DNA of 32,000 bases. Origin: Vibrio cholerae ATCC 14035 (GTDB lineage: Bacteria; Pseudomonadota; Gammaproteobacteria; Enterobacterales; Vibrionaceae). The notes below the pieces were generated by a model. It was not told the DNA's origin and ran no database searches. It saw nothing but the letters and a program-made list of their open reading frames with translations. This document shows positions 7,901-28,199 of the stretch, piece after piece. The stretch covers positions 30,001 through 62,000 of the forward strand of contig NZ_JHXR01000015.1 of assembly GCF_000621645.1 (NCBI RefSeq). The letters are read 5' to 3'. The position numbers were made by a program, and so were the translations under genes. Position 1 is the first letter of the stretch. The number at the start of each line of letters is the position of its first letter.

Positions 7901-7930
7901 GATAAAAACACCCAGCGAGTGCTGGGTGTT
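7901..7930 (-). terminator. Rho-independent terminator ending the FDH operon
   Basis: Stem aacacccagc(7907-7916)/gctgggtgtt(7921-7930), loop gagt. On the minus strand it is followed by TTTTTATCC. It lies 17 nt after the stop of the 7947..8369 gene. Confidence 0.65.
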
Positions 7931-7946
7931 GAACGCTAGACCTGTA

Positions 7947-8369
7947 TTACAAATTCGGCCCTTTGGAGGGAGAATGCGGTAAGTTATTTTGATACTGCTG
8001 CATGCCTTGGATCATCCGCCAGATCCAAATAGAGATGGCTCCAACGGCAATGAGTGCGCCCACATAAGGAATGCCATGCCCAAGTTTGGCAAGCCAATGC
8101 TCCGGCATCCAGTAGCGATTCACACCCATGATAATGCCGTTCGTGGTCGCTACCGTCACAATCAATACCACAAAGAATGTGAGATAGAGGAAGAAACTGC
8201 GAATGAGCCCATAGTAATGGGAATTCGCTATCTCACCGTCTTGGTTCTTATCCAATCGATAACCCGCATAGATAATGCCAATCACGCCCGAGAGCAAGCA
8301 GGTGAATGGCGTCAGCAAGCTTGCAATGTAGACAAACCACACTGACTTGTGCGCTCTATCTTGATTCAT
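7947..8369 (-). CDS. Small polytopic membrane protein (140 aa), last gene of the FDH operon; function unknown
   Basis: Strong SD (AGGAGAGG) 6 nt (TGAGCC) before the ATG at 8369. Its start overlaps the gamma-subunit stop by 14 nt (ATGAATCAAGATAG). It has 3-4 predicted hydrophobic helices. Confidence 0.75.
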   Translation of the reverse strand: MNQDRAHKSVWFVYIASLLTPFTCLLSGVIGIIYAGYRLDKNQDGEIANSHYYGLIRSFFLYLTFFVVLIVTVATTNGIIMGVNRYWMPEHWLAKLGHGIPYVGALIAVGAISIWIWRMIQGMQQYQNNLPHSPSKGPNL

Positions 8370-9429
8370 GGCTCACCTCTCCTTTCGTTTGATTGAATGA
8401 GGCCGGTTGAGATTCCGTACTGGCTTCTTCAATTTCACCGCGGCGTTTCACTTCTTCATACCAAAGGTCATGATGCTCTTTCGCCCACGTTTCATCCACT
8501 TTGCCGGTCACCATGCCTTCTAATGCGCCTTCCATACCAAACAGACCGATATAAATATGGAAGATAAAGCCACAGATTAAGATCAACGCTGAGAGCATAT
8601 GAATGAGGTTCGACAGTTCCATATCACGACGTGTTTGACCAAAGATCGGGAAGTCGAGCACCAAACCACTAATGGCCGCAAAGGTTCCAAACACAATCAG
8701 TAACCAGTAAATGGCTTTTTCCCCAGCATTGGAAAAGCCTGCTGAAGGATGTGTGCCTTTGTATTTTCCAACCATGCCACCGAGTTTCATAAACCACTGC
8801 ACATCCACTTTATTGAAGATGGATTTGCGCCACCACTTGAGCAGTACAAACATCAGCAAAATGAAAAACAGTGGTCCCATGTAGTTGTGATACTGCTTCG
8901 CGGCATAGATGATCCAGCCCCACAGCTCACTCGGGATATACGGTTTTAAGAAGTGCTTACCGTACACCAGCATCAAGCCACTGAATGCCAAGGTCAGGAA
9001 GGTAAACGCCATGCTCCAGTGCAGCGCCCTATCTGAGCGTGACCAGCGATTGAGCTTACGTCCGGTGCGCGGCTTACTCAGCATCAGCGGACCGACTGCG
9101 ATATACGCTAGCACGACCATTGCTATGCTGCCGAAAATCGCCACCGCACCAGCCGGAGACATCCATTTCTCTTTGAGGATAAACCAAGTTTCACCCGGTT
9201 TACTGATCAACACGCCATGTTCAGGAGACTGAGACGTGGTGTACCCCGCTTCGCCTTGTCGTACCTGACGCCAAAAGTCTGCACCCGCCAGTTGGGTCAT
9301 CTCTTTTTGCACCACATCCGGTTTTGCGTTCTCTTCTGCCATCACGGGTTGAGCCAACCAGCACAGCAGTGCTGCCAATAAAGGCAGCACAAAACGAGTG
9401 GCGCGAGAAAGTTGTTGTCTCATAGCCAC
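8356..9429 (-). CDS. fdhC: Formate dehydrogenase gamma subunit (di-haem cytochrome b, FdnI/FdhC family) with an N-terminal periplasmic extension
   Basis: Signal-like N-terminus (LPLLAALLCWLAQPVMA), then 5 helices with the conserved His-bearing segments (RALHWSMAF, QYHNYMG, HMLSAL, FHIY). The listed start is GTG 9429; ATG 9423 is an alternative. It abuts the fdhB stop. Confidence 0.85.
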   Translation of the reverse strand: MAMRQQLSRATRFVLPLLAALLCWLAQPVMAEENAKPDVVQKEMTQLAGADFWRQVRQGEAGYTTSQSPEHGVLISKPGETWFILKEKWMSPAGAVAIFGSIAMVVLAYIAVGPLMLSKPRTGRKLNRWSRSDRALHWSMAFTFLTLAFSGLMLVYGKHFLKPYIPSELWGWIIYAAKQYHNYMGPLFFILLMFVLLKWWRKSIFNKVDVQWFMKLGGMVGKYKGTHPSAGFSNAGEKAIYWLLIVFGTFAAISGLVLDFPIFGQTRRDMELSNLIHMLSALILICGFIFHIYIGLFGMEGALEGMVTGKVDETWAKEHHDLWYEEVKRRGEIEEASTESQPASFNQTKGEVSHESR

Positions 9430-10038
9430 TTAACTCCGAGTTGCGTCATAGGCGAGATCTTCACCGTTCGTCCAACCGGCACCTTTCGCACCGCGTTCTA
9501 CTACGCGTTGACGGAAAATATCGGAGATTTTCTCCGCATCCCCCGCTAGCAGTGCTTTGGTAGAACAGAGAGAAGCGCACATGGGCAGTTTGCCTTCCGC
9601 AATACGGTTGGCTCCGTATTTACGACGTTCCTCTTCCGAACCCGGCTCTGTTTCAGGGCCGCCAGCACAGAAGGTACATTTGTCCATCTTACCGCGCTCA
9701 CCAAACGCCGCCTGTTTCGGAAACTGCGGCGCACCAAACGGACAAGCAAACAAGCAGTAACCACAACCGATACAAAGATCTTTGTTGTGCAGCACAATGC
9801 CATCTTCGGTATGGACAAAGCAGTCTGCTGGACACACCGCCATACAAGGCGCATCGGTACAGTGCATGCAAGCCACGGAAATCGAGTTTTCACCCGGCTC
9901 ACCATCGTTGAGCGTGACTACGCGGCGACGCTGGATGCCCCATTCCAGCGCATCATCGTTTTCATTTTTACAGGCCGTGACACAGCCGTTACATTCGATA
10001 CAGCGTTTGGTGTCACACAGGAATTTCATTCTTGCCAT
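9430..10038 (-). CDS. fdhB: Formate dehydrogenase iron-sulfur (beta) subunit, 4x[4Fe-4S] ferredoxin type
   Basis: Cys clusters CIECNGCVTAC, CMHCTDAPCMAVCP, CIGCGYCLFACP and CTFC...C; 202 aa with no C-terminal membrane anchor. Confidence 0.88.
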   Translation of the reverse strand: MARMKFLCDTKRCIECNGCVTACKNENDDALEWGIQRRRVVTLNDGEPGENSISVACMHCTDAPCMAVCPADCFVHTEDGIVLHNKDLCIGCGYCLFACPFGAPQFPKQAAFGERGKMDKCTFCAGGPETEPGSEEERRKYGANRIAEGKLPMCASLCSTKALLAGDAEKISDIFRQRVVERGAKGAGWTNGEDLAYDATRS

Positions 10039-10049
10039 GGGTAAGCTCC

Positions 10050-12905
10050 TTACGCTTTACGAATGTTACAGAGGGTGACTTTGGTTTCTTGCATCAAGGT
10101 GACAGGATCGTAGCCGTAGGTTGTGGCGGTGTTTGCCGCTTCCCCAACCACATAAGGCTGTGTCCCTTCTGGGTATTTTGGACGCAGATCTTCCCCTTGG
10201 AACTTGCCACCAAAGTGGAATGGTAAGAACGCCATGCCCGGTTTCACCCGACGAGTCACCATGGCTTTGACTTTGATGCGCCCTTTCTCTGCGCCTTCAA
10301 CCCAAACCATATCACCATCCATAAAGCCTAAATCGTTGGCATCTTTCGGGTTCACTTCAACAAACATCTCTTGTTGTAGTTCGGCTAGCCAAGGGTTAGA
10401 GCGGGTTTCTTCACCACCGCCTTCATACTCGACCAAGCGACCTGAAGTGAGAATGATCGGGTATTCCACTGATTTATCTTGCGCTTGAATCGATTTGTAC
10501 AGGGTTGGCACACGGAAAATAAACGCTTGATCGTCCCACGTCGGGTAATCAGCGAGTAGATCACGACGTGGTGTATACAGCGGTTCACGGTGCAGCGGCA
10601 CGCGGTCTGGGAATGTCCACACAATCGCCCGCGCTTTCGCGTTACCAAATGGAATACAGCCGTGTTTGATCGCGACACGCTGAATGCCGCCAGAAAGGTC
10701 AGTTTTCCAGTTTTTACCTTCTGCAGCCGCTTTCTCTTCCGCAGTTAAATCATCCCACCATCCGAGTTGTTTCAGCAGCTTATCGCTAAATTCTGGATAG
10801 CCGTCTTGCAGCTCACACCCTTTCGAGTAGCTATCTTCAGCCAGCAAACTCTTACCTTCAAACTCCACACCAAAACGGGTACGGAAGTTACCGCCACCTT
10901 CGGCTACGGTTTTCGAGGTATCGTAAAGAATGTGTGTGCCGGGGTGTTTCATCTCTGGCGTTCCCCAACATGGCCAAGGCATACCGTAAGTATCGCCATG
11001 CGCAGGGCCACCTTCGGCCGCCAACGTAGTTTTGTGGAAGGTGTGCCAGTTCTGTTGGTGTGTTTTCAAGCGCTCTGGGCTTTGTCCGGTGTAACCAATC
11101 GTCCACATACCGCGGTTAAATTCACGGGTGATGTCTTCAATCAGTGGCTGATTGTTCTCAACCCGAATGTGTTTACACAACTGATCTGCAATCCCCAGTT
11201 TTTGACTGAGCAGATACATGATTTCGTGATCAGGTTTGGATTCAAACAGCGGCTCAATCACCTGATCACGCCACTGAATAGAACGGTTAGACGCCGTCAC
11301 ACTGCCGTATGTTTCAAACTGAGTGGTCGCTGGAAGCAGATACACTCCATCGGTGCGATCGTTCATTACCGCCGCAACCGTTGGGTATGGGTCAACAATC
11401 ACCATCATATCCAGCTTTTGCATCGCCTTTTTCATTTCCACGCCGCGGGTTTGCGAGTTCACCGCATGACCCCAATAGAACATGGCGCGGATGTTTTCAC
11501 GTTGCTGAAGGTTGTCTTTGTTTTCAAGTACACCATCGATCCAACGAGAGACAGGGATCCCCGGAGTTTCCATTGGCAATGCGCCGTTATAAGTGCCTTG
11601 GTCAAAGCGGTTTTTGATCCACTCGAAATCCACGCCCCATACGCTTGCCCAGTGTTTCCATGAACCTTCGGTCAAACCGTAGTAACCCGGCAATGTATCG
11701 GAAAGCACACCTAAGTCGGTTGCGCCTTGCACGTTATCGTGACCACGGAAAATGTTGGCACCGCCGCCTGATTTACCGATGTTGCCCAGCGCCAACTCAA
11801 GGATGCAGTACGCACGAGTATTGTTGTTACCTGTGGTGTGTTGCGTACCGCCCATACACCAAATCACACAACCCGGACGGTTTTCCGCTAGGATTTTCGC
11901 TGTGGTGTAAACTTCTTCTTCGCTTACGCCAGTGACACGCTCAACTTCGGCTGGTGTCCATTTGGCCACTTCCGCGCGGATTTCATCCATACCGAAGACA
12001 CGTTGACGGATGTACTCTTTGTCTTCCCAGTTATTTTTGAACACGTGCCACAGCACGCCCCAAATAAAGGCTACGTCACTACCCGGGCGCAGGGAAACAA
12101 AGTAATCCGCTTTTGCTGCAGTACGGGTACGACGAGGATCGGCAACCACGATTTTGCAGCTGTTTTTCTCTTTTGCGATCAAAATGTGCTGCATCGCGAC
12201 TGGGTGAGCTTCGGCGGGGTTAGATCCAATGAACAGCATCGACTTACAGTTGTGCATGTCATTGAATGAGTTGGTCATGGCACCATAACCCCAAGTGTTT
12301 GCTACACCCGCAACCGTGGTGGAGTGGCAAATACGCGCTTGGTGGTCAACGTTGTTGGTGCCCCACAGGGAAGCCATTTTACGGAACAGATAGGCCTGCT
12401 CGTTACTGTGCTTAGCACTGCCGAGAAAATAAACCGAATCTGGGCCTGACTCTTCACGGATCTTCAGCGCTTTGTCACCAATTTCATTGATGGCTTGTTC
12501 CCAAGAGATCTTCTTCCACTTGCCGCCTTCGAGCTTCATTGGGTATTTCAGGCGACGTTCACCGTGGCCGTGTTCACGTAACGCTGCGCCTTTTGCACAG
12601 TGACCGCCCGCGTTGAATGGGTGATCAAAAGCCGGCTCTTGGCCAGTCCAAACACCGTTTTGTACTTCAGCGTAGATACCGCAACCGACGGAACAGTGCG
12701 AACAGATGGTACGCTTCACTTCCGTTTTTGCGCTGCGATCCACGTCGCTGGCCTGAGCTTTACGGATCATGCCCGGCGTAAACAAAGAGGCACCAACCGC
12801 CGCTCCGCCCGCTGCCAGTGACGTGTTTTTCATAAAGGCACGACGGCTAATACCGAGCTGATTTTGCTCTTTGGTCACGCTGTCTGAACGTTTGATGAGT
12901 CTCAT
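10050..12905 (-). CDS. fdhA: Formate dehydrogenase catalytic (alpha) subunit, bis-MGD molybdo/tungsto-enzyme, Tat-exported, Cys-type
   Basis: Twin-arginine signal (GISRRAFMKNTSLAAGGAAVGA...AQA). N-terminal FeS motif CSHCSVGCG...C. The active-site segment HQARICHSTTV carries Cys where Sec-type enzymes have U, and there is no in-frame TGA. SD TAGGAG precedes the ATG at 12905. Confidence 0.93.
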   Translation of the reverse strand: MRLIKRSDSVTKEQNQLGISRRAFMKNTSLAAGGAAVGASLFTPGMIRKAQASDVDRSAKTEVKRTICSHCSVGCGIYAEVQNGVWTGQEPAFDHPFNAGGHCAKGAALREHGHGERRLKYPMKLEGGKWKKISWEQAINEIGDKALKIREESGPDSVYFLGSAKHSNEQAYLFRKMASLWGTNNVDHQARICHSTTVAGVANTWGYGAMTNSFNDMHNCKSMLFIGSNPAEAHPVAMQHILIAKEKNSCKIVVADPRRTRTAAKADYFVSLRPGSDVAFIWGVLWHVFKNNWEDKEYIRQRVFGMDEIRAEVAKWTPAEVERVTGVSEEEVYTTAKILAENRPGCVIWCMGGTQHTTGNNNTRAYCILELALGNIGKSGGGANIFRGHDNVQGATDLGVLSDTLPGYYGLTEGSWKHWASVWGVDFEWIKNRFDQGTYNGALPMETPGIPVSRWIDGVLENKDNLQQRENIRAMFYWGHAVNSQTRGVEMKKAMQKLDMMVIVDPYPTVAAVMNDRTDGVYLLPATTQFETYGSVTASNRSIQWRDQVIEPLFESKPDHEIMYLLSQKLGIADQLCKHIRVENNQPLIEDITREFNRGMWTIGYTGQSPERLKTHQQNWHTFHKTTLAAEGGPAHGDTYGMPWPCWGTPEMKHPGTHILYDTSKTVAEGGGNFRTRFGVEFEGKSLLAEDSYSKGCELQDGYPEFSDKLLKQLGWWDDLTAEEKAAAEGKNWKTDLSGGIQRVAIKHGCIPFGNAKARAIVWTFPDRVPLHREPLYTPRRDLLADYPTWDDQAFIFRVPTLYKSIQAQDKSVEYPIILTSGRLVEYEGGGEETRSNPWLAELQQEMFVEVNPKDANDLGFMDGDMVWVEGAEKGRIKVKAMVTRRVKPGMAFLPFHFGGKFQGEDLRPKYPEGTQPYVVGEAANTATTYGYDPVTLMQETKVTLCNIRKA

Positions 12906-12916
12906 CGGGTTGGCTC

Positions 12917-13114
12917 CTATAGCGTGTTGTAGTAATCACGAATGTGTTGAGTTTCGTGATAGCCTTTTTTCAGCGGCTCTTTGCTCTCGGTACTTGCTTC
13001 ACTGGCGACCGTTTGAGTACTGACCCCCGCGACGACAGCGCCAGCGACAGCCGCTGTGCCTAACCCTTTAAGCAGATCGCGTCTGCTTTGGTTTACTTGG
13101 TTCTCTTTTTTCAT
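12917..13114 (-). CDS. Small (65 aa) twin-arginine-signal protein of the 'formate dehydrogenase region TAT target' type (name from memory)
   Basis: NQSRRDLLKGLGTAAVAGAVVAG is a canonical Tat signal. SD AAGGAAG precedes the ATG at 13114. The stop lies 11 nt before the fdhA ATG. Confidence 0.75.
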   Translation of the reverse strand: MKKENQVNQSRRDLLKGLGTAAVAGAVVAGVSTQTVASEASTESKEPLKKGYHETQHIRDYYNTL

Positions 13115-13190
13115 CGATTGCTTCCTTATTGCTTAAGTTTTAGCAACTTAGCTATGCGTCTTAAGACGTCTGCTTTTAATTCCGGTTTGT

Positions 13191-13877
13191 TCACTGCTCA
13201 GCTTTATCGGTCAGGTTTTTCACCTCGATCCGATAACGATTCTTGCGACTGCTTGGTGCTTGTGTCATCGCCACTTGTTCTAAACTCAAAAAAGCGTCCA
13301 GAAGCTGCGCGACGGCTAAATAAAATTGGGCATGAGGAGCCTGACGAATTTGGCTCACCAGTTTGCCAAACCAAGGGGCGATATGGCGATTGAAGAAGGC
13401 TTGTTGCGTCTGCTCATCCGCGTTCTCGTCACCACTTTGCTCACATAAATAAGCCATGGTTTCGCACAGCGCCGAAATGTGATCTTCTGGCTCGCGCACT
13501 TGCTCATCACGCTCTAGCCCTAAGCGGCTCAAATCATGACGAATCTCAGCCAGCGGCTTTTCCATCAATGAACCAGTTAGATGCCATGAGGCAAAAGGCA
13601 CCACTTCACCACGACCGATACCAATAAACAGCTCTTGATACTCTTCAGCCAGATACTCGTCCGCCAAAGAGTCCGCTTGAGCGTTGTGTGCGGCGGCGGA
13701 TATCGCCTGCCACGCTTTCGCCATTTCGGTGCCATTGGCCTCAAAGTCCAATTCGGCTAGAAAGGTGCGCAGCTCTGCTGAGGGCACATCACGCAGCAGT
13801 GTGGCGAGCAGCAGGTAAATGTCTGAACGCATTGACTGTGAATGTGTTGACTGTGAACGCATAGATTGCTCTTGCAT
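13191..13877 (-). CDS. TorD/DmsD-family redox-enzyme maturation chaperone (putative FDH-specific)
   Basis: All-helical, with DIYLLLATLL...ELFIGIGRGEVVPFASWH typical of the TorD family. The start is set at ATG 13877 because TAAGGAGAAAGCAATG provides a strong SD that overlaps the upstream stop. Confidence 0.75.
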   Translation of the reverse strand: MQEQSMRSQSTHSQSMRSDIYLLLATLLRDVPSAELRTFLAELDFEANGTEMAKAWQAISAAAHNAQADSLADEYLAEEYQELFIGIGRGEVVPFASWHLTGSLMEKPLAEIRHDLSRLGLERDEQVREPEDHISALCETMAYLCEQSGDENADEQTQQAFFNRHIAPWFGKLVSQIRQAPHAQFYLAVAQLLDAFLSLEQVAMTQAPSSRKNRYRIEVKNLTDKAEQ

Positions 13878-13887
13878 TGCTTTCTCC

Positions 13888-15549
13888 TTAATACTTGAGC
13901 TGCTGCTCAGGGTCATGTGCCATGGCTTCAAACATGTCGACTACCCGGCAGTCTTCGCACATCGCAATACGATTGAGCGCTTCCGGTGTAGCGAAATGTG
14001 AGTGACCGCGTAACTTGGTTTGCAACATGGTAATCATGGATTGTGGCGCGAAAGGTTTATGGCAACGCAGGCACTTAGCGGGTTCTTCTTGATGCAAAGT
14101 CACCACACCTTGGCGTGCCGCTTTGTTCCAGTTGAGTTGTGGCGTCGCGCTAAGCGCTTGTTCAGGGCAAGCTTTGACACACAAGCCGCACTGCACACAG
14201 TCTTGTTCAATAAAGCGTAGTGCTGGGCTATCTCCCGCCGGATGCAGTGCACGCGTTGGGCAAACCGCAACACAGCTCATGCATAAAGTACAATCGCTTG
14301 CTTGGCATTCAATGGTGCCGTAAGGCGCGCTAATACTGAGTGGTTGAACGCTCGGTTGTGCATTGAGTGTTTCTGCTAACGCATCCAGCGCGGTAAACAG
14401 ACGTTCGCGCTTATTACCGATTAAGTCACCCAACTTAAGCCCAAGCGGCTGTTCACACAGTACCGGCATCCCCTCGCGTAGCGATTCGAGATAAAGAATA
14501 TCAATCGTCTCTTTGGGCAAACCCAAGTGAGTCAGCAAGCTCTGCGCCATGCTCATTTCTTGGTTGAGAATACGCTGGATAGTGGGCGGCATATGACGGC
14601 TCGCGGCAAACAACACTTGAGTTGCACCGTTAACTAAAGCAGCAAACCAGCTGTCGATACCGACAGAAGGCAGCTCTTCTACCACCACAGGAATCACGTT
14701 ATCTGGTAATACCTTAAGTGCCATGACGTTGTAACTTTCATGTCGAGAACTGCAGATCAGCACGATCGGTTTTTCACCGCCAGCTTGGTGGTAATTCGCC
14801 AGTAATCGCTCAATAAATTTTTGCGTATCGGTAGGATTAGGCAGCGCGTAGTGAATCGCTTCCGTCGGGCAAGCGGTCGCACAGGTTCCGACGCCCTGAC
14901 ACAGGTAAGGGTTAATTTGAATCCGATGCCCTGTTTGCTCTGAACCTTCACTGGACAGTGCGCCAGCAGGACATGCATCCACACAGCGTTCACAGCCTTT
15001 CACACCGCGTGAACTGTGCGCGCACAAATCGGGATCCAAGCGAAAATACTTAGGTTTATCGAAAGTGCCCATCAGAGTTGGGATCTCTTCCAGCGCATCC
15101 GCCAGCTTTGGATAACCGCGTCCTACTGGAAAATAACCGGGTACAGGTACTTCTTCACTCATTAAACCGTTGAGTGACATATCCAATACGATATCAAAGC
15201 TGTTTCCACCTATCGCGGCTTGCGCCAAATTGACTCGTTTACCGTGGTTTTCTACGTTCACCGAGAAGGCGCCGAGGAAACCGCTGATTTCTACCGTATC
15301 GGCATAGTACAAATTGCTTTGTGTGCCAGGCTCACCATCCACAGAAAGGAGCGTGATTGAAGCCATACTGCTCAGTGGCTCGGTAATACGCTCAATGAGC
15401 ATAGTGGGTCCAATAATTAAGGTATGGCCGCCACTTTCGTAACTTACGGTAGGAGGAATAAGATTGGTCAACTCAACCGTATGCTCAATCGCATACTGTC
15501 TCGCCCGACCGTTTGGAGACGTCGCTTGTTGTAGTAGGTTGTTTAACAT
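13888..15549 (-). CDS. Cytoplasmic multi-cluster 4Fe-4S ferredoxin-domain protein (553 aa), FDH-associated, function unknown
   Basis: Four ferredoxin-type Cys motifs (C..CERCVDACP; CQGVGTCATACP; CQASDCTLCMSCVAVCP; CVQCGLCVKACP) plus a C-terminal CLRC...CEDC knuckle pair. No signal peptide. It is the first gene after a sigma-54-like promoter. Confidence 0.85.
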   Translation of the reverse strand: MLNNLLQQATSPNGRARQYAIEHTVELTNLIPPTVSYESGGHTLIIGPTMLIERITEPLSSMASITLLSVDGEPGTQSNLYYADTVEISGFLGAFSVNVENHGKRVNLAQAAIGGNSFDIVLDMSLNGLMSEEVPVPGYFPVGRGYPKLADALEEIPTLMGTFDKPKYFRLDPDLCAHSSRGVKGCERCVDACPAGALSSEGSEQTGHRIQINPYLCQGVGTCATACPTEAIHYALPNPTDTQKFIERLLANYHQAGGEKPIVLICSSRHESYNVMALKVLPDNVIPVVVEELPSVGIDSWFAALVNGATQVLFAASRHMPPTIQRILNQEMSMAQSLLTHLGLPKETIDILYLESLREGMPVLCEQPLGLKLGDLIGNKRERLFTALDALAETLNAQPSVQPLSISAPYGTIECQASDCTLCMSCVAVCPTRALHPAGDSPALRFIEQDCVQCGLCVKACPEQALSATPQLNWNKAARQGVVTLHQEEPAKCLRCHKPFAPQSMITMLQTKLRGHSHFATPEALNRIAMCEDCRVVDMFEAMAHDPEQQLKY

Positions 15550-15605
15550 TGCTTGCTTCCGCTTATAAGAATCACGAGCGTGTTGGCTCGTTTTACATAA
15601 GCTAA

Positions 15606-15621
15606 AGCAAATAGCGTTCCA
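15606..15621 (-). promoter_or_regulatory. Sigma-54 (-24/-12) promoter-like motif upstream of the FeS/TorD/FDH operon
   Basis: The minus strand reads TGGAAC-GCTAT-TTGCT (consensus TGGCAC-N5-TTGCW) with GG-N10-GC spacing intact. It sits 57 nt upstream of the ATG at 15549. Confidence 0.5.
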
Positions 15622-15687: not shown

Positions 15688-15712
15688 AGAGTGAGACATT
15701 ATGTCTCACTCT
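15688..15712. promoter_or_regulatory. 25-bp near-perfect palindrome AGAGTGAGACA-TTA-TGTCTCACTCT; candidate enhancer (UAS), or alternatively the terminator of the DUF3305/3306 unit
   Basis: It has 11-bp perfect arms. Its centre is about 80-95 bp upstream of the -24/-12 motif at 15606-15621. It lies 36 nt past the DUF3306-like stop. Further TGTCYC half-sites occur at 15735-15740 and 15763-15768. Confidence 0.4.
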
Positions 15713-15747
15713 ACCTATTGAGGAGTAAGTCAAAATGTCCCTAATCT

Positions 15748-16852: not shown

Positions 16853-16868
16853 AGCAATAATTGCGCCA
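16853..16868 (-). promoter_or_regulatory. Sigma-54 (-24/-12) promoter-like motif upstream of the DUF3305/DUF3306 genes
   Basis: The minus strand reads TGGCGC-AATTA-TTGCT with correct GG-N10-GC spacing. It sits 37 nt upstream of the ATG at 16816. Confidence 0.5.
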
Positions 16869-16932: not shown

Positions 16933-16948
16933 CGGCACCCTTTTTGCT
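16933..16948 (+). promoter_or_regulatory. Sigma-54 (-24/-12) promoter-like motif upstream of fdhD
   Basis: The plus strand reads CGGCAC-CCTTT-TTGCT with correct spacing. It sits 93 nt upstream of the fdhD GTG at 17041 and back-to-back with the 16853-16868 motif. Confidence 0.45.
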
Positions 16949-21818: not shown

Positions 21819-23262
21819 GGCTGAGATCCTCGCTTTCCCACTCTTTGTATTTACGCTCCAACGTTTTACGTGCCACGCCTAAATCGCGGGCGGCGGCCGA
21901 TTTATTGCCCTCATGCAGCGCCACAATTTGCTGAATATGTGCTTTTTCCACCGCACTCAGAGGCCAATCGTTGGGATATCCCAAGCTGGGCTGCGTGACA
22001 TTGTCACCAAGTGAAATTTCAGAATTATTACTCTGTGACATTGTCACCTCGGGTTCTGCATAAATAGGCAGACCATTGAGCTCTCGCCAATAATGCGCAG
22101 GCGGTTTGCCCAATAACAAGCAGCGCTCAATTAAGTTTTTCAACTCGCGAATATTGCCCGGCCAATCATAGTCTTGCATCGAAGAGATATCTTCATACGC
22201 CCATTTAGGCATTGGCATCCCCAGTTCCGCACAGAGCATTTTGGTGAAAAACGGCAACAGTTCATGCAGATCTTGCTTGCGCTCACGCAGTGGGCTCACT
22301 TCGATTTTCAACACATTAAGCCGGTAGTAAAGATCGCCGCGGAAACGGCCATTTTCGACTTCTTGTTGCAGATTACGGTTGGTGGCGGCCACCACTCGCA
22401 CGTCCACATTCACCTCTTTTTCCGAACCCACTGGGCGCACCGCGCGTTGTTCTAAAACCCGTAATAGCGAGGCTTGCATGGTCAGTGGCATTTCGCCGAT
22501 TTCATCCAAAAACAGAGTGCCGCCGTTAGCCACGCGAAACAGCCCTTCACGACTCTTCTTCGCGCCGGTAAATGCCCCAGAGGTGTGCCCAAACAGTTCA
22601 CTTTCCAGCAGTTCTGGCGCAATCGCGCCGCAGTTGATTGGCACAAAAGGACCTTGGCGACCACTCGCTTCATGGATGCCGCGTGCGACCAACTCTTTGC
22701 CCGTCCCCGATTCCCCTTCAATCAGCACCGAAGCGCGCGACGGAGCAAATTGAACAATGCGCTGCTTGAGTAATTCGGTTTGCACTGAACTGCCGATGAT
22801 TTGTGTTGTGCAGTGGCGTTGAAAATCACGCTGCAAGGCGTACTGCAAACGCTCATTGAGGCGCTTATTCATACAGCGTTGCACCGCTTGCAGCATTTGT
22901 TCGAGGTTAAATGGCTTGAGGATAAAATCGCTTGCCCCCAGTTTGAGAGCGCTGATGGCGGTCTCAAGATCCGCGAATCCGGTCATAAAAATCACATCCG
23001 CGCGGTGATCCGGATCGGTAAACGCTTCTTCCCATTCAATCCCTGAGCGTCCCGGTAGGTTGATGTCTAAAATCAGCAAGTCGTAGTGATGCTCACCACG
23101 CAGCACCTCGGCCTCTTCAATGCTGCTGGCTAAATCGACGCGCGAAAACCATTTACTCAGCGCTTTTTTCAGTACCAGTTGCATACCGACTTCGTCATCA
23201 ACAAGTAAAACAGAGAAGGCTTGATATAAATGGGTTTGATTGAGATCCAAAACTGGTGACAT
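21808..23262 (-). CDS. Sigma-54-dependent response regulator (REC + AAA+ enhancer-binding domain + Fis-type HTH), NtrC family
   Basis: REC domain with LLILDINLPG, Walker A GESGTGKE, the GAFTGA sigma-54 contact loop (GHTSGAFTGA), and a C-terminal HTH (NKSAAARDLGVARKTLERK). Confidence 0.92.
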   Translation of the reverse strand: MSPVLDLNQTHLYQAFSVLLVDDEVGMQLVLKKALSKWFSRVDLASSIEEAEVLRGEHHYDLLILDINLPGRSGIEWEEAFTDPDHRADVIFMTGFADLETAISALKLGASDFILKPFNLEQMLQAVQRCMNKRLNERLQYALQRDFQRHCTTQIIGSSVQTELLKQRIVQFAPSRASVLIEGESGTGKELVARGIHEASGRQGPFVPINCGAIAPELLESELFGHTSGAFTGAKKSREGLFRVANGGTLFLDEIGEMPLTMQASLLRVLEQRAVRPVGSEKEVNVDVRVVAATNRNLQQEVENGRFRGDLYYRLNVLKIEVSPLRERKQDLHELLPFFTKMLCAELGMPMPKWAYEDISSMQDYDWPGNIRELKNLIERCLLLGKPPAHYWRELNGLPIYAEPEVTMSQSNNSEISLGDNVTQPSLGYPNDWPLSAVEKAHIQQIVALHEGNKSAAARDLGVARKTLERKYKEWESEDLSHES

Positions 23263-23328
23263 AGAGGGATTCCATAACTTATTGAGACAGAACGACTCAA
23301 TTAACCTTACATTGGCTAGGCGTAATTT

Positions 23329-23343
23329 GCGACATTTTGTCCC
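23329..23343. promoter_or_regulatory. Palindrome GCGACA-TTT-TGTCCC, candidate enhancer-binding site upstream of the tup promoter
   Basis: It matches 12 of 15 positions of the core of the 15688-15712 palindrome (GAGACA-TTA-TGTCTC). It is centred about 100-115 bp upstream of the sigma-54 motif at 23438-23453. A further GAGACA half-site lies at 23284-23289. Confidence 0.35.
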
Positions 23344-23437
23344 ACACGGTTTAAAGTGTCACTATCTTTAGGCCAGATTTGCCACAAATCACCGACTTTT
23401 TGCAGGGAAAATAGCCCTCAATGAGTAAGAATGACGT

Positions 23438-23453
23438 TGGCATCCCATTTGCT
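23438..23453 (+). promoter_or_regulatory. Sigma-54 (-24/-12) promoter-like motif upstream of tupA
   Basis: TGGCAT-CCCAT-TTGCT, one mismatch to TGGCAC-N5-TTGCW with correct spacing. It sits 100 nt upstream of the ATG at 23554 and is divergent from the sigma-54 activator gene. Confidence 0.6.
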
Positions 23454-23553
23454 ATACCTCTGTTTCGTATAAACTCATCAGCAATTGATTTCATTCAGTG
23501 TTATCAGTGTATTAGCTGATCTAGATCGCTGACTTTACCTCCAACGTACCGTC

Positions 23554-24381
23554 ATGGAATTCACAATGAAAAAAACAACCTTTACCCTCGCAGCCGCTTC
23601 GTTAATTTTGGTCAGTTACTCGGCTTCTAGTGCCGATGACGCTCGTATTCGTCTTGCGACCACCACCAGTACTTACGATTCTGGCTTGCTTGATTACCTC
23701 CTGCCAAAATTTGAGCAAGATACGGGTTATAAAGTGGATGTGATCGCCACTGGCACAGGTAAAGCGCTGAAAATGGGCGAAAATGGCGATGTGGATTTGG
23801 TGATGACCCATGCACCGAAAGCCGAAGCCAGCTTTGTTGAGGCAGGTTTCGGTGTTCTACCACGTAAACTGATGTACAACGACTTTGTGGTGGTTGGCCC
23901 AGAAAGTGATCCGGCTAAAATCGCCGATGAAAAGAACATCGCGAAAGTATTTGAAAATATTGCTAAAAGCGGCGCTGTATTTATCTCACGTGGTGATGAT
24001 TCCGGCACACACAAGAAAGAGCTCGGCATTTGGGCACAAAACAAGATTGAACCGAATTTCGGTGGCTACCGTTCTATTGGTCAAGGCATGGGTCCAACAC
24101 TGAATATGGCGTCAGAAATGCAGGCTTATACCCTGACCGACCGAGGGACTTGGCTGGCTTACAACAATAAGTTGGCTCTCAAGATTCTGTTTGAAGGTGA
24201 TGAGCAACTGTTTAACCCTTACCAAGTGATCATTGTCAACCCTGAGCGTTACCCAACCACCCAATATCATGCCGCTAAAGTGTTTAGTGATTGGCTGGTG
24301 AACCCTAAAGGCCAGCAGTTGATTAACGAGTTTAAAGTCAATGGCCAACAACTCTTTGTGGCCAATGCGGACAAGCAGTAA
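23554..24381 (+). CDS. tupA: Periplasmic tungstate-binding protein, TupA-like (ABC substrate-binding)
   Basis: Signal peptide (TLAAASLILVSYSASSA) and a mature N-terminus RLATTTSTYDSGLLDYL carrying the TTTS motif characteristic of TupA-type oxyanion binders. ATG 23566 (MKKTT) is an alternative start. Confidence 0.8.
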   Translation: MEFTMKKTTFTLAAASLILVSYSASSADDARIRLATTTSTYDSGLLDYLLPKFEQDTGYKVDVIATGTGKALKMGENGDVDLVMTHAPKAEASFVEAGFGVLPRKLMYNDFVVVGPESDPAKIADEKNIAKVFENIAKSGAVFISRGDDSGTHKKELGIWAQNKIEPNFGGYRSIGQGMGPTLNMASEMQAYTLTDRGTWLAYNNKLALKILFEGDEQLFNPYQVIIVNPERYPTTQYHAAKVFSDWLVNPKGQQLINEFKVNGQQLFVANADKQ

Positions 24382-24387
24382 TCCTCG

Positions 24388-25086
24388 ATGAGTCTTTGGC
24401 AAACAACCCTAGATGCCTTGCATCTGTTGGTGAGTCTAGATCCTAAGCTATGGGAGATCGTTGCGGTCTCCTTTAGTGTTTCGCTAACGGCCATTGCTCT
24501 GGTGCTCATCCCCTCTGTGGTGCTCTCTTTTGTGCTGGCGTACACCAATTTTCGCGGTAAATGGACTCTGCTTTCGCTGATCAATACCCTGCAAGCGGTT
24601 CCAACTGTCGTGATAGGTCTGCTGCTGTATATGTTGCTCTCACGCGCAGGCCCGCTGGGTGATTGGCAGATGCTGTTTACCCAGCAAGCGATGATTTTAG
24701 GTCAAGCACTGATCTGTTTTCCGATTCTGGTTGCCATGATGCATGGTGCGTTGCAATCGACTGATCGCCGCTCGCTAGAAACTTCAATGACGCTGGGAGC
24801 TTCCGTACCTAGGCTCTTTGCAACCTTAGTCTGGGAAGCGCGCTTTCCTTTAATGGCCGCAACCATTGCGGGTTTTTCCCGTATCGTGACCGAAGTTGGC
24901 TGCTCAATGATGGTCGGTGGCAATATCATGGGCTTGACCCGCAATATCCCAACGGCCATTTCATTGGAAAGCAATAAAGGCGCTTTTGCGCAGGGGGTGG
25001 CGCTGGGTATGGTGCTGCTTGCCTTAGCGCTAGGGCTCAACTTTCTGCTCTCTTCCCTACGGGGCAAAGGCTATTTAAGGACATAA
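24388..25086 (+). CDS. tupB: ABC transporter permease, TupB-like
   Basis: 232 aa with 5-6 hydrophobic helices and an EAA-like loop (SLETSMTLGASVPRLFATLVWEARFP). It starts 6 nt after the tupA stop. Confidence 0.8.
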   Translation: MSLWQTTLDALHLLVSLDPKLWEIVAVSFSVSLTAIALVLIPSVVLSFVLAYTNFRGKWTLLSLINTLQAVPTVVIGLLLYMLLSRAGPLGDWQMLFTQQAMILGQALICFPILVAMMHGALQSTDRRSLETSMTLGASVPRLFATLVWEARFPLMAATIAGFSRIVTEVGCSMMVGGNIMGLTRNIPTAISLESNKGAFAQGVALGMVLLALALGLNFLLSSLRGKGYLRT

Positions 25087-25094
25087 GGCCAATC

Positions 25095-25817
25095 ATGACG
25101 ATCAAACTTACCGCACAGCAGCTTTCCATGCGTTTTAAAGATCGCGTGTTATTTCATATTCCCGAGATCGCCATCGGCCCTAATGATGCCATTTACCTTA
25201 AGGGCGACAATGGTGTGGGTAAAACCACCTTATTGAAAATTCTCGCGGGCTTGTTAGAGCCGAGCAATGGTAGAGTGCTTGGCCGTAAACCTTGGTGGCA
25301 GCGCTTGTTTTTGACTTCCGCGACCTCAGAAGTTGTCTATCTTCATCAAAGCCCCTACCTGTTTGATGACACGGTTTATCAAAATGTGGTGTACGGCATT
25401 CGTTTCAGTGGCTTGTCTGCGCATGAAAAGCGCGCGCAAGTGATCACTGCCTTGCGTATGGTCGGGCTAGAAACGCTGGCCGATGAGCATATTTCTGTGC
25501 TTTCCGGCGGAGAAAAACAGCGCGTAGCGATGGCGCGAGCGTGGATCCTCAAGCCCTCTATTTTGTTGATGGATGAGCCGAGTGCGTCATTGGATCAAGA
25601 ATCTATCGAGAGATTGGTTATAATGGCGCGAGATTTATTAGAGCGCGGCTCCAGTCTTGTCATCACTAGCCACCAAACCAACGCCCTCACGGCGCTGTGT
25701 AAAAAGCAGTGGTGGATTAAAGAGCGTCAACTGATTGAGTCGCCTTTGCTGCAGATTGTGAAAGAAAACAATGATAACCACACAAACACTTCCCACGCTT
25801 CAACCTTCCGACACTAG
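25095..25817 (+). CDS. tupC: ABC transporter ATP-binding protein, TupC-like
   Basis: Walker [10 protein letters not shown], signature LSGGEKQR, Walker B ILLMDEP. The non-conserved-looking C-terminal tail overlaps mobA. Confidence 0.8.
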
Positions 25818-26382
25818 CTGGGTGATTCTTGCTGGCGGACAAGCCAGCCGCATGGGAGGACAAGACAAAGGCCTGATCCAGTTGAATGGTCAGCCCCTGG
25901 TTCAACATGTGATCGATAAGTTGGCCCCACAAACGCCGACTTTGCTCATCAACGCCAATCGCAACCAAAGCCAATACCAACAATTTGCGCCGGTGATCAG
26001 TGATGAGTTTCCAGATTATCCGGGACCGTTAGGCGGCATTCATGCCGGTTTAAGCCATGCACCAACCGATTGGGTCGGCTTTGTCCCTTGTGATAGCCCG
26101 TTAATTTGCGATGATTTAGTCGCCCGTTTCTGTCAGGCTGTCAAACCCGAGAGCGATATTTTAGTGGCTCATGATGGTGAACATCAGCAACCTGTGTTTA
26201 CCCTATTTCATAAACGCGTGTTACCCAAACTCAGCGCCTTTTTAGCCCGTGGCGATCGCAAAATCATCTTGCTTTACGATGAATGCCATACTTCTTACGT
26301 CGATTTTAGCGATGCACCAAGCTGCTTTTTTAATTTGAATACGCCACAAGAGTTGGCGCAATTTGGAGCGTTACATCCATGA
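25771..26382 (+). CDS. mobA: Molybdenum cofactor guanylyltransferase MobA
   Basis: [27 protein letters not shown] and FVPCDSP motifs. ATG 25771 overlaps tupC by 47 nt; the in-frame GTG at 25822 is a possible alternative start. Confidence 0.88.
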
Positions 26383-28199
26383 TTGCTTCTGCACACCAGA
26401 ATCCTCAACGCCCTAACCTGCCACTACTCGGTTTCGCTGCCTATTCTGGCACCGGAAAAACGACGCTGCTAGAAGCCCTGCTGCCTAAACTGACAGCAAC
26501 TGGTTTGCGCATTGGTCTGCTGAAACACGCGCACCACGATTTTGATGTCGATAAGCCAGGCAAAGACAGTTATCGCTTACGTAAAGCGGGAGCGTCTCAA
26601 ATGCTGATTGCGTCGCGTAACCGTCATGCGCTAATAACCGAAACCCCCGATGCCGAAGCGGAGTTTGATTATCTGTTGACTCGATTTGATGCTGAAAAGC
26701 TCGATGTGATTTTGGTTGAAGGCTGTAAAAATATCGCTTTTCCAAAAATTGAACTGCACCGCGCGGAAGTCGGTAAGCCTTGGCTTTACCCTCATGATAA
26801 AAACATCATTGCGATTGCTGCCGATGAGACGGTCGCAACGGATCTGCCGCAAATGCACATTAATGATCTCGATGCGATCGCTGATTTCGTTTTGGATTAT
26901 GTCAATAAGTGGCGCGCGCAGCAGATTCAACCACACACAGTGTCAGATTCCAAAAACAATGCAGCGGCATGCTGCGACACTTTATCCCCTGCTTTCCTTT
27001 CTGTAGAACAAGGCCGCGAGAAGATCCTCTCGCTCATCTCACCTTTGGCAGAGACAGAATCGGTAGCGATTCAAGAGTGCTATCAACGCGTACTGGCGCG
27101 TGAAGTTTTCTCTCCGAACAATGTGCCCGCCTATCGCAACTCAGCGATGGATGGCTATGCGCTGCGCAGTGATGATCTTGAACGCGATAGCTACCGTGTA
27201 GTGGCGGAAGTGCTCGCCGGTAGTCATTATCCGAAAACGGTTGAACGCGGCGAAGCGGTGAAGATTATGACTGGCGCACCAATGCCACTCGGTGCTGATA
27301 CGGTAGTAATGCGTGAGCAAGCCACGCAAAACGGCGAACTGGTCAGTTTTGCGGGTGCCAAAATCAAAGCAGGACAAAACGTACGCCAAGCAGGTGAAGA
27401 TTTGGCGCAAGGCCAAGCGGTCTTTAGCATAGGTCAGCGTGTGCTTTCTCCAGAAATGGGCATGTTGGCGTCACTGGGTTTTGCGCACGCGGACGCATTT
27501 CGCTCGCTTAAAGTCGCGATTTTTTCGACAGGCGATGAAGTACAAGCGCCCGGCGGTGACATTGAGCCAAACTCTATTTTTGATTCCAACCGTTTTACTC
27601 TGACAGGATTACTCAAACAGCTCGGCTGCCAAGTGATCGATCTCGGTATCATCGAAGATGACGAAGCAAAAATGATGCAAGTGCTTGAGCAAGCAGCAAA
27701 ACAGGCTGATGTGGTGATCACTTCCGGTGGTGTTTCTGTGGGCGATGCGGATTTCATCAAATCCGCGCTAGAGAAGCTGGGACAAATTGATTTTTGGCGG
27801 ATCAATATGCGTCCGGGACGCCCACTGGCGTTTGGCCAGATTGCTGGAAAACCTTTCTTCGGTCTACCGGGCAACCCTGTCGCGGTAATGGTTTCTTTCA
27901 TCAACTTTGTGGAACCTGCTCTGCGTAAAATGCAAGGTGAACAAGGTTGGCAACCACTGAAAGTCAATGCGATTGCGTTGGAAGATCTGCGCTCTCGCCA
28001 AGGCAGAACTGAGTTCAGCCGTGGGGTTTACGCTTTTAATACGCAAGGACAACTGACAGTACGTACCACGGGCAAACAAGGTTCGGGGATTTTGCGCTCA
28101 ATGAGTGAAGCGAACTGCTTGATTGAAATTGCTCCGGCGATTGATACGGTAAAAGTCGGTGAAAGCGTGACAATCATCCCACTTCAAGGCAGAATCTAG
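26379..28199 (+). CDS. Fused MobB (MGD-biosynthesis adapter GTPase) and MoeA (molybdopterin molybdenum/tungsten insertase)
   Basis: Residues about 1-180 are collinear with MobB ([16 protein letters not shown]...[19 protein letters not shown]). Residues about 200-606 are collinear with MoeA ([44 protein letters not shown]). It is a single uninterrupted ORF, with an ATGA start/stop overlap with mobA. Confidence 0.88.

Follow-up and report, generated by a model that had tools for sequence, protein, structure and literature searches.

The 32,000-nucleotide stretch of the Vibrio cholerae ATCC 14035 genome analyzed here (contig NZ_JHXR01000015.1, positions 30,001 to 62,000; called the window below and numbered from its first letter) contains an 18-gene block coding for a periplasmic formate dehydrogenase (FDH), a Tup-like oxyanion importer, enzymes of cofactor synthesis and a two-component system. 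All genes listed in an initial annotation, which had been made from the DNA letters alone, were found at or near their coordinates by means of the open reading frame (ORF) list and Pfam and NCBIfam profiles, and exact protein matches identified the cluster as VC1510-VC1527 of V. cholerae. Among these matches are Q9KRW3 (VC1521) for the kinase, Q9KRX3 (VC1510) for a 140-amino acid (aa) protein and ABQ20552.1 from strain O395 for the catalytic subunit FdhA. With moderate confidence, we regard the block as the formate regulon of V. cholerae, in which formate-switched sigma-54 control would serve the periplasmic FDH as well as the metal uptake and cofactor genes. The locus itself, its sigma-54 promoters, the enzyme type and the synteny of the accessory genes are already in the literature; new here are the prediction of formate binding by the kinase, a palindrome upstream of two of the promoters, the proposed link between DUF3305 and cofactor maturation, and the assignment of the ybiT gene as a passenger.

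Gene content and conservation of the cluster

An operon-like run of genes on the minus strand codes for a DUF3305 protein, a DUF3306 protein, a polyferredoxin, a TorD/NarJ-type chaperone, a 65-aa protein, the subunits FdhA, FdhB and FdhC, and the 140-aa protein. The fdhD gene is divergent from this run; beyond it follow ybiT and the genes for the kinase and the response regulator, and the tupABC-like genes, mobA and mobB-moeA are in turn divergent from the regulator gene. Many neighbouring genes overlap by 4-47 nucleotides (nt), suggesting translational coupling. The FDH operon ends behind the gene for the 140-aa protein in an intrinsic terminator (7907-7930, minus strand), whose 10-bp stem contains 6 GC pairs and precedes a T-run. 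This terminator and the gene overlaps fit the published VC1516-VC1510 transcription unit and operon boundaries (PMC3439928).

The cluster is flanked by housekeeping genes, namely those for RsmF, DAHP synthase, YajQ and CobB on one side and for a ROK kinase and a DTW protein on the other side, and the GC content is even across the window. Because of this even composition, the housekeeping flanks and the same chromosomal place throughout the genus, we rejected a mobile island; the block is a conserved chromosomal cluster. It had been described as self-contained, which goes too far with regard to molybdopterin synthesis: none of the genes moaA-E, moeB and mogA was found within the cluster, which is hence not fully self-contained, and these genes are located elsewhere in the genome. 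A comparison with Rfam returned no molybdenum cofactor (Moco) or other riboswitch within the cluster.

A genome scan seeded with DUF3305 (7-sequence alignment) yielded 80 loci, all from Vibrio, to which the counts for Vibrio loci given below refer, while the relatives from beyond Vibrio come from single contig look-ups only. The co-conservation to be expected of a functional unit was observed, since the nine core genes (VC1510 to fdhD) are all present and in unchanged order in 66 of the 68 Vibrio loci spanning at least 20 kb. As for more distant relatives, a metagenomic contig (L081) has the same core genes, a further one (L089) contains tupACB, fdhD, a MobA::DUF3305 fusion, DUF3306, the chaperone, the 65-aa protein and FdhABC together, and a third (L090) combines the full core and fdhD with moeA-mobB-mobA and a gene for a sigma-54 regulator that shares 46% identity with VC1522. 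The view that the block acts as one functional and regulated unit is therefore upheld by the recurrence of the association in distant genomes, the gene order kept in the Vibrio loci and the four sigma-54 promoters described below.

The ybiT gene (17981-19573, minus strand), which codes for an ABC-F ATPase (NF011646, 1016 bits), is a passenger without a part in the system: it shows no sigma-54 site upstream in the Vibrio loci and varies in position, and the loci of V. cincinnatiensis, V. metschnikovii and V. injensis lack it. The kinase gene lies within 100 bp of fdhD in these three species. Other Vibrio species carry kilobase-sized inserts on either side of ybiT, which contain genes for an MscS-like channel and an AAA protein, a chemoreceptor, or a GGDEF-EAL protein. 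Both sides of ybiT are insertion hot spots, and several Vibrio species have an insert of two genes, coding for the MscS-like channel and an AAA_22 protein of ~785 aa, that separates the kinase gene from ybiT or fdhD (L004:5429-8689, L011:1711-4963 and L016).

Sigma-54 promoters, upstream palindrome and predicted activator

Scanning the window for the pattern TGGCAC-N5-TTGC resulted in seven matches, four of which are intergenic and face the genes for DUF3305, FdhD, the polyferredoxin and TupA. They represent the promoters of the FDH operon (TGGAACGCTATTTGC, 15607-15621, minus strand), of the DUF3305-DUF3306 genes (TGGCGCAATTATTGC, 16854-16868, minus strand), of fdhD (CGGCACCCTTTTTGC, 16933-16947, plus strand) and of the tupABC-mobA-mobB/moeA genes (TGGCATCCCATTTGC, 23438-23452, plus strand), and are identical to the sites reported from chromatin immunoprecipitation (ChIP) of RpoN for VC1516-10, VC1518-17, VC1519 and VC1523-27, respectively. 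The promoters of fdhD and DUF3305 are arranged back-to-back with 64 bp between them. Sigma-54-type sites are present upstream of the polyferredoxin gene in 74 of 78, of tupA in 24 of 24, of DUF3305 in 67 of 79 and of fdhD in 54 of 79 Vibrio loci, compared to 0-4 of ~77 for the genes internal to the operons.

All four promoters had been mapped by ChIP-seq of RpoN and RNA-seq in V. cholerae V52 (Table 2 in Dong and Mekalanos 2012, PMC3439928). The initial annotation had suspected that RpoN regulon studies in Vibrio might have touched the locus, which is true of this study and of one on V. parahaemolyticus (PMC9817140), and had considered the combination of the genes as a regulated unit not to be established, which no longer stands, since the four promoters were published in 2012 with RpoN ChIP peaks and RpoN-dependent transcripts (PMC3439928). 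The reported RpoN dependence amounts to 22- to 69-fold for VC1516-10, with 22-fold for VC1510, 7.5- and 10.9-fold for VC1518-17, 3-fold for VC1519, and 2- to 5.7-fold for VC1523-27 (PMC3439928). Correspondingly, VP1510-1515 of V. parahaemolyticus are RpoN-dependent, with log2 values of -3.2 to -4.75 in an rpoN deletion mutant (PMC9817140), and VC1510-1518 and VC1523-24 co-vary in an unrelated V. cholerae transcriptome (PMC5816637). Our data agree with those of Dong and Mekalanos in the locus, the operon boundaries and all four -24/-12 sequences. An activator, a signal and an upstream site do not figure in their study, in which VC1517, VC1518 and VC1510 appear as hypothetical proteins and VC1523-27 only as "ABC transporter and molybdopterin synthesis" (PMC3439928).

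Counting k-mers upstream of the conserved promoters revealed the sequence ACATTTTG in 74 of 74 FDH and 22 of 24 tup regions. It resolves to the palindrome GACA-N3-TGTC with the extended consensus TGnGACAwwwTGTCnCA. If up to one mismatch is allowed, the palindrome is present in all 74 FDH regions and in 23 of the 24 tup regions of the Vibrio loci, versus ~6% of shuffled controls. Its distance from the two promoters is 72-118 bp overall; at the FDH promoter it is located 80-89 bp from the -24 element in 69 of 74 cases, and at the tup promoter 72-106 bp upstream of the -24 element. In the window, the predicted activator region of the FDH operon (15692-15768, unstranded) consists of a perfect proximal palindrome (TGAGACATAATGTCTCA, 15692-15708), a middle site (GACATTTTGAC, 15729-15739) and a distal half-site (GAGACAAAAT, 15759-15768), the three sites being spaced by ~33 bp, and the predicted activator site of the tup-mob genes is TGCGACATTTTGTCCCA (23328-23344, unstranded). 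Only two perfect copies of GACAwwwTGTC occur in the 32-kb window (15695-15705 and 23331-23341; 0.07 expected), both upstream of the FDH and tup promoters. Across 1.57 Mb of Vibrio loci, we counted 120 perfect copies of GACAnnnTGTC, 103 of which are located in the FDH and tup intergenic regions, resulting in a density of 4.76 per kb in these two regions versus 0.016 per kb elsewhere. The palindrome was also recovered in the distant metagenomic relative L081, 82 bp upstream of the polyferredoxin promoter.

The response regulator VC1522 (21808-23262, minus strand) is of the NtrC type, with the domains REC (PF00072), Sigma54_activat (PF00158, 1.6e-69) and HTH_8 (PF02954), and contains the motif SGAFTGA, the Walker motif GESGTGKE and the receiver motif LDINLPG. 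Its match to the FhlA profile NF011958 reaches 236 bits (cutoff 830) and covers the AAA+ core only, and its N-terminus is a REC domain, showing that it does not belong to the FhlA family. Because the palindrome follows the pattern of an enhancer site and VC1522 is the sole enhancer-binding protein encoded in the cluster, VC1522 likely binds to the palindrome.

Two observations speak against this model of regulation. The palindrome is rare at the promoters of DUF3305 (8 of 67) and fdhD (12 of 54), and the VP1510 promoter of V. parahaemolyticus was not bound by RpoN alone in electrophoretic mobility shift assays, which represents a weak test without core polymerase (PMC9817140). At the DUF3305 and fdhD promoters, where the palindrome is mostly missing and no other clear site emerged, we assigned none; a few species have a similar motif downstream of the DUF3305 promoter.

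A ChIP peak of the quorum-sensing regulator AphA is listed for the VC1522/VC1523 region (window 23263-23553; PMC6855506), and the tup palindrome is located ~70 bp from the start codon of VC1522; autoregulation or cross-talk in this region is possible. The VC1522 orthologue in L090 (6416-7834) has a degenerate receiver with VVNLDL compared to ILDINL in Vibrio and is adjoined by a TunR-like gene. No kinase gene is present within 10 kb of this orthologue, which may be a kinase-independent variant.

Formate dehydrogenase, its probable metal and its accessory proteins

The catalytic subunit FdhA (10050-12905, minus strand; 951 aa) is a Cys-type enzyme exported via the twin-arginine translocation (Tat) pathway and matches 9VAP_A, the enzyme of Shewanella oneidensis (SoFdhA), over its full length with 1593 bits, at ~83% identity over the aligned N-terminal region. 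The Tat motif SRRAFMK, the motif CSHCSVGCG for the N-terminal [4Fe-4S] cluster and the motif RICHS containing Cys193-His194 all align with SoFdhA. Cys193-His194 corresponds to the position of the selenocysteine or cysteine ligand, and the same spot reads X in the F420-dependent FDH chain of 9T1S. The beta subunit FdhB (9430-10038, minus strand; 202 aa) is predicted to carry four iron-sulfur clusters (NF038355 FDH3_beta, 338 bits, cutoff 240; 9VAP_B, 5.8e-108); it is short compared to E. coli FdnH (294 aa), and no C-terminal membrane helix is apparent in its sequence. FdhC (8356-9429, minus strand) is a cytochrome b gamma subunit (TIGR01583, 297 bits, cutoff 116; PF01292; FdnI of 1KQF, 7e-25) with an N-terminal extension of ~125 aa containing a signal or anchor sequence. 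The FDH3-type beta and the TIGR01583 gamma subunit both exceed the curated cutoffs. The chaperone of FdhA is the TorD/NarJ-family protein FdhT (13191-13931, minus strand; PF02613, 5.6e-35), named after the equivalent SO_4507, and FdhD (17041-17874, plus strand; PF02634, 1.5e-79) is the sulfurtransferase and carrier of the bis-pyranopterin guanine dinucleotide (bis-PGD) cofactor. The most likely start of fdhD is GTG at 17041, which is preceded by an AGGA ribosome-binding site and gives a protein of 277 aa, and not 16861. In a transcriptome table based on strain N16961, VC1513 (FDH alpha) is labelled "pseudogene" (PMC5816637), and the ORF in the window is intact with 951 aa and identical to the O395 protein; there is either a lesion in N16961 or an erroneous old annotation.

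The genes SO_4503-4511 of S. oneidensis (FdhA1B1C1 cluster) show the same order, with fdhD, two hypothetical genes, an iron-sulfur protein, FdhT, FdhX, FdhA, FdhB and FdhC, and the ligand is Cys in both enzymes. Unlike in Vibrio, where one 20-kb block contains everything and the gene for the 140-aa membrane protein follows fdhC, the Shewanella tupABC genes are located apart (SO_4719 onward) and the FDH genes are duplicated. The metal was measured for the Shewanella enzyme only: SoFdhAB (9VAP), although produced in medium with 0.5 mM molybdate, contained 0.78 W and 0.05 Mo per protein (PMC13066108), and it is listed as a Cys-W enzyme in a 2026 review (PMC13397495). From the tungsten of this orthologue and the structural relatives of TupA, the V. 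cholerae enzyme is probably a Cys-ligated periplasmic FDH with a tungsten-bis-PGD cofactor.

The genes for the importer, an ATP-binding cassette transporter, are located at 23554-24381 (tupA-like), 24388-25086 (tupB-like) and 25095-25817 (tupC-like) on the plus strand and were assigned from matches in the Protein Data Bank (PDB) and NCBIfam. The TupA-like protein matches 3MUQ (2.8e-129), the tungstate-binding protein 3LR1 of Geobacter (5e-75) and 5MY5 (2e-67), and both the anion-binding TTTS motif (ATTTSTYDSGLL) and the SGTH motif (RGDDSGTH) are present in the alignment; tungstate is its presumed substrate. The importer genes are followed by those for MobA (25771-26382, plus strand; TIGR02665, 239 bits, above the cutoff) and a MobB-MoeA fusion (26379-28199, plus strand; NF011060, 1037 bits, cutoff 532), which account for metal insertion into molybdopterin and the addition of GMP.

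The opposite view, that the V. cholerae enzyme uses molybdenum and that the Tup-like transporter is a general or molybdate importer for all enzymes with the cofactor bis-MGD (MGD, molybdopterin guanine dinucleotide), the tungsten link being nominal, is unlikely in our judgement. Several facts speak for it and weigh against tungsten: TupA and TupB stay below the NCBIfam equivalog cutoffs (245 vs. 400 and 179 vs. 320), for which reason we call them "Tup-like", TupC lacks a TOBE domain, and the mobA and mobB-moeA products serve any bis-MGD enzyme. Moreover, some related FDHs accept either metal. On the other hand, the highly similar Shewanella enzyme took up tungsten almost to the exclusion of molybdenum in the presence of molybdate, the binding protein is closest to the structurally characterized TupA group with the TTTS motif kept, and the Shewanella equivalents are annotated as tungstate uptake and co-vary with the FDH genes in two transcriptome studies, although the two loci are ~200 gene numbers apart.

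We found no paper on the function of the five accessory genes apart from a note on synteny from 2015 (PMC4464133), in agreement with their initial description as functionally unestablished. In this note, the order of DUF3305, DUF3306, ferredoxin, NarJ-family chaperone, fdh-tat and fdhGHI was reported for ~60% of the DmsD(fdh)-linked operons (Bay et al. 2015, PMC4464133). The DUF3305 protein (VC1518; 16340-16816, minus strand; PF11749) yielded an AlphaFold2 model with an alpha/beta fold and a mean confidence (pLDDT) of 88.6, for which a Foldseek search against the PDB returned no match better than E = 0.3. The DUF3306 protein (VC1517; 15748-16350, minus strand; PF11748, 6e-25) has conserved N- and C-terminal segments flanking an acidic low-complexity middle part; its start is most likely GTG at 16350, which is placed behind a GGGAGG ribosome-binding site and overlaps the DUF3305 stop by 11 nt. 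The first gene of the main operon, VC1516 (13888-15549, minus strand), codes for a cytoplasmic polyferredoxin of 553 aa, identified by Fer4 families and cysteine motifs, with two ferredoxin modules, two unassigned domains and a C-terminal CxxC...CxxC knuckle, corresponding to at least three to four iron-sulfur clusters. A search for homologues of the polyferredoxin returned almost only V. fluvialis duplicates.

In other genomes, DUF3305 is fused to the C-terminus of MobA (NCBIfam NF011058; P0186, P0226; L084, L089). In contig L084, the MobA::DUF3305 gene overlaps fdhD and faces a polyferredoxin-like gene, and no FDH structural gene is present within 10 kb. Since DUF3305 is fused to MobA next to fdhD, it would take part in cofactor maturation. 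None of the DUF3305, DUF3306 and polyferredoxin sequences shows an N-terminus resembling a twin-arginine or other signal peptide, or a hydrophobic segment. From the MobA fusions, the context in L084 and the absence of export signals, we infer that the three proteins form a cytoplasmic maturation module around MobA, FdhD and the chaperone. An fdhE gene is not present in the cluster, which contains DUF3305, DUF3306, the polyferredoxin and FdhX instead, and the maturation module presumably stands where E. coli would use FdhE. Bay et al. treated the DUF3305 and DUF3306 proteins as putative membrane proteins (PMC4464133), whereas the sequence, the model and the MobA fusions indicate soluble cytoplasmic proteins.

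Alternatively, the same three proteins may be redox partners of the mature enzyme, for example as a cytoplasm-facing electron route, instead of maturation factors. Such a role fits the number of iron-sulfur clusters in the polyferredoxin, whose gene heads the structural operon and shows the strongest induction in it, and also the earlier view of the DUF3305 and DUF3306 proteins as membrane proteins of an FDH operon. Yet FdhAB is exported via the Tat system and the three proteins show neither a signal peptide nor a hydrophobic segment, DUF3305 is fused to an enzyme of cofactor synthesis, and L084 keeps the polyferredoxin-like gene, fdhD and MobA::DUF3305 together in the absence of FDH genes nearby. 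In addition, active tungsten-loaded SoFdhAB was obtained from a plasmid with only fdhT, fdhX, fdhA and fdhB, although the host chromosome still contained SO_4504-4506 (PMC13066108). Taken together, a role as redox partners is improbable, and we continue with the cytoplasmic maturation module.

FdhX (12917-13114, minus strand) is the 65-aa "formate_TAT" protein (TIGR02811, 86 bits). An alignment of 18 Vibrio sequences and a distant one from L081 showed an invariant SRRxLLKG Tat motif, an AxA-type signal-peptidase site, a variable linker and the invariant tail GY[HR]E[TS]xH[IV]xxYY, which is also kept in the distant sequence. A direct sequence search for FdhX returned no relative in the PDB. The last gene of the FDH operon, VC1510 (7947-8369, minus strand), codes for the 140-aa protein with three predicted transmembrane helices, for which we obtained no match in Pfam, NCBIfam or the PDB. 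The start of VC1510 and the end of fdhC share 14 nt, and VC1510 occurs in 66 of the 68 full Vibrio loci with 55-97% identity and the invariant motifs YAGYRLDK and HYYG. The simplest guess is that VC1510 is a membrane partner of FdhC; it is a candidate for an extra membrane subunit or an assembly factor.

Sensor kinase and proposed formate regulon

The sensor kinase VC1521 (19785-21818, minus strand) has the architecture TM-Cache-TM-HAMP-HisKA-HATPase (TM, transmembrane segment), the Cache domain comprising residues ~49-315 (window 20874-21674) between flanking hydrophobic segments. This domain matches sCache_3_3 (88 bits, 5e-25, cutoff 28.8) and Cache_3-Cache_2 (52 bits, 1e-13, cutoff 27.7). 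An AlphaFold2 model of the sensor based on 40 homologues was bimodular with a pLDDT of 85.3, and a Foldseek search of the PDB with it showed a resemblance of the whole domain to LuxQ-type sensors, with LuxQ periplasmic domains as the best whole-domain matches, and the highest sequence identity to the formate-bound structures 8PY0 and 8PY1 (E ~5e-7). The latter were also the best PDB matches of a profile of the kinase family (8PY0, E = 3.9e-4; 8PY1, E = 1.1e-3), and a direct PDB sequence search with the VC1521 sensor domain returned nothing significant.

The ligand of this Cache family is known from the chemoreceptor PacF (Cache_3-Cache_2), which bound formate alone out of 760 compounds and requires one essential Arg for binding; this Arg and two Thr are 98-99% conserved in 744 homologues, and the formate pocket is too small even for acetate (PMC11804620). 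That study, from 2025, covers chemoreceptors only and mentions neither kinases nor FDH. In the profile alignment with 8PY0 and 8PY1, the essential Arg (PacF R142, 8PY0 R111) corresponds to Arg237 of the kinase and the Thr at position +3 (PacF T145) to Thr240, both of which are invariant in the 40 homologues. The hydrogen-bonding Y160 of 8PY0 would correspond to Tyr288, a residue conserved in 90% or more of these homologues; the placing of Y160, and of Phe175 below, uses an 8-residue offset between the numbering of the paper and the deposited chain, which we deduced from residue spacing. VC1521 shares the Pfam families, the PacF-like bimodular domain, the conserved Arg and Thr and probably the Tyr with PacF, Atu0526 and 8PY0/8PY1. 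It differs from these chemoreceptors (PMC11804620) in that its domain drives a histidine kinase and has a Tyr in place of the Phe at the pocket floor. We conclude from these similarities that VC1521 is probably a formate sensor and formate its signal. In the literature, we found no publication on the signal of VC1521/VC1522, and VC1522 appears only in lists.

This assignment has to be weighed against several observations. The Phe175 of 8PY0, which forms the pocket floor and limits its size, aligns with Tyr303, which is aromatic but not identical, and the profile alignment with 8PY0 spans only the C-terminal half of the module. Furthermore, the regulator gene is tied physically to tupA, from which it is divergent and to which it is adjacent in 24 of the 24 loci showing both, and not to the FDH genes, and L089 and L090 carry TunR-like regulators, both of which leave room for a metal signal. 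VC1521 could then read the metal supply by sensing periplasmic tungstate or molybdate, either directly or via loaded TupA in the manner of LuxQ-LuxP, so that the tungsten enzyme would only be switched on when tungsten is available. The varying distance of kilobases between the regulator and the FDH genes fits this idea, as do the structural matches to the periplasmic domains of LuxQ, whose signalling depends on a binding protein, the TunR-like regulators in distant relatives, and stand-alone Cache homologues located ~5 kb away from tupABC in two out of three contigs from Deltaproteobacteria. However, these two contexts come from one lineage and the third is without tup genes, and the Cache family so far binds formate only, in a pocket too small for acetate, with the Arg and Thr invariant in the kinase family. 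Trace-metal importers are also usually repressed, and not induced, by their own substrate. Metal sensing by the two-component system is therefore quite unlikely, and we retain formate as the probable signal of VC1521.

The Cache homologues just mentioned are encoded on Deltaproteobacteria metagenome contigs (L086, 8001-9062; L087; L088). They are proteins of 353-356 aa with little beyond the Cache domain, which is 37-47% identical to the VC1521 sensor, and no kinase-domain Pfam family was recorded for them. Their genes always adjoin those for a carboxyltransferase and GreA; one of the two contigs with tupABC also carries a TunR-like regulator. Many Vibrio species have a gene for a 620-aa chemoreceptor between ybiT and fdhD (e.g., L011:6865-8727). 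We rejected this chemoreceptor beside fdhD as a formate sensor, since helices make up its ligand-binding region, which has no relation to the Cache domain of the kinase. In V. mimicus (L003), the chemoreceptor position is taken by a 468-aa gene product with a match to HAMP and no match to the signalling domain of methyl-accepting chemotaxis proteins.

In the proposed regulon, VC1521 would phosphorylate the NtrC-type activator VC1522, which would then bind to TGnGACAwwwTGTCnCA upstream of the FDH and tup-mob promoters and would fire the DUF3305 and fdhD promoters as well, either directly or via weaker sites. One set of genes switched on in this way would supply the TupABC-type oxyanion importer, MobA and MobB-MoeA for a bis-PGD cofactor with tungsten (or molybdenum). 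The other sets would comprise FdhD, the DUF3305 and DUF3306 proteins, and the operon for the polyferredoxin, the TorD-like chaperone, FdhX, FdhA, FdhB, FdhC and VC1510, with the DUF3305 and DUF3306 proteins and the polyferredoxin acting in cytoplasmic maturation between MobA, FdhD and the chaperone. The resulting product would be a Tat-exported, Cys-ligated FdhAB, most likely containing tungsten, which docks on FdhC and transfers electrons to quinone from formate in the periplasm. We infer four parts of this scheme, namely formate binding by VC1521, palindrome binding by VC1522, the metal in Vibrio and the roles of the five accessory genes. Both in the gut and in sediments, formate ranks among the major electron donors.

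A more far-reaching version, which is possible but doubtful as a whole, would be a just-in-time assembly line for a tungsten enzyme triggered by formate. VC1521 would then be the first histidine kinase with a formate-specific Cache domain, the DUF3305 and DUF3306 proteins and the polyferredoxin would replace FdhE at the hand-off from MobA via FdhD to the chaperone, and FdhX, as a Tat-targeted peptide of ~25 residues, and VC1510 would be unrecognized parts of the mature or exporting enzyme. It counts against such a part for FdhX that it is no chain of 9VAP although it was co-expressed with SoFdhAB (PMC13066108). That the adjacency of the genes merely reflects chromosome history, the modules being regulated and used independently, is very improbable: kilobase insertions and ybiT part the modules in many Vibrio species and the Shewanella FDH and tup loci are far apart, but both modules share one sigma factor and one palindrome, are co-expressed in two species and are associated again in distant lineages.

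The proposed system resembles the FhlA regulon of E. coli, in which formate likewise acts on sigma-54 promoters for a molybdoenzyme and its accessory proteins via an upstream-bound AAA+ activator. FhlA is a one-component cytoplasmic GAF sensor controlling the cytoplasmic FDH-H and hydrogenase 3, whereas the targets of the periplasmic Cache kinase and the REC activator would here be a respiratory FDH of the periplasm as well as metal uptake and cofactor synthesis. The enzyme itself is similar to FDH-N of E. coli (FdnGHI, 1KQF) in the Tat-exported alpha and beta subunits on a cytochrome b, the reduction of quinone and the FdhD-dependent sulfuration. FDH-N contains selenocysteine and Mo, has a beta subunit with a membrane helix and requires FdhE; the V. 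cholerae enzyme contains Cys and probably W, with a short beta and a long gamma subunit. As proposed, the system adds one more example to the sigma-54 regulons that are induced by the substrate of a respiratory molybdo- or tungsto-enzyme.

This model does not overturn current views and fills gaps in an already mapped locus, and V. cholerae is genetically tractable, which makes it directly testable. If true, it would for the first time assign a signal and a DNA site to an orphan two-component system of V. cholerae, and would provide a kinase counterpart to the recently found formate chemoreceptors and a clean system for studying how cells choose and insert tungsten over molybdenum. The enzyme's closest relative, a catalyst that reduces CO2 and tolerates oxygen, is of interest to biotechnology, and identifying the accessory genes needed for maturation would aid heterologous production.

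Three further features were recorded outside the cluster. An ORF of 449 aa with a TTG start (3286-4635, plus strand) matched no Pfam family at E <= 1e-4. The small RNA SdsR/RyeB (RF00111, 46 bits, gathering threshold 38) is encoded at 2232-2325 (plus strand) between rsmF-like and CvfB-like genes. Vibrio RNA AS5 (RF02818, 102 bits) is located at 29592-29716 (plus strand), just past a DUF2960 gene and close to where the convergent ROK-kinase gene (29766-30674, minus strand) has its 3' end.

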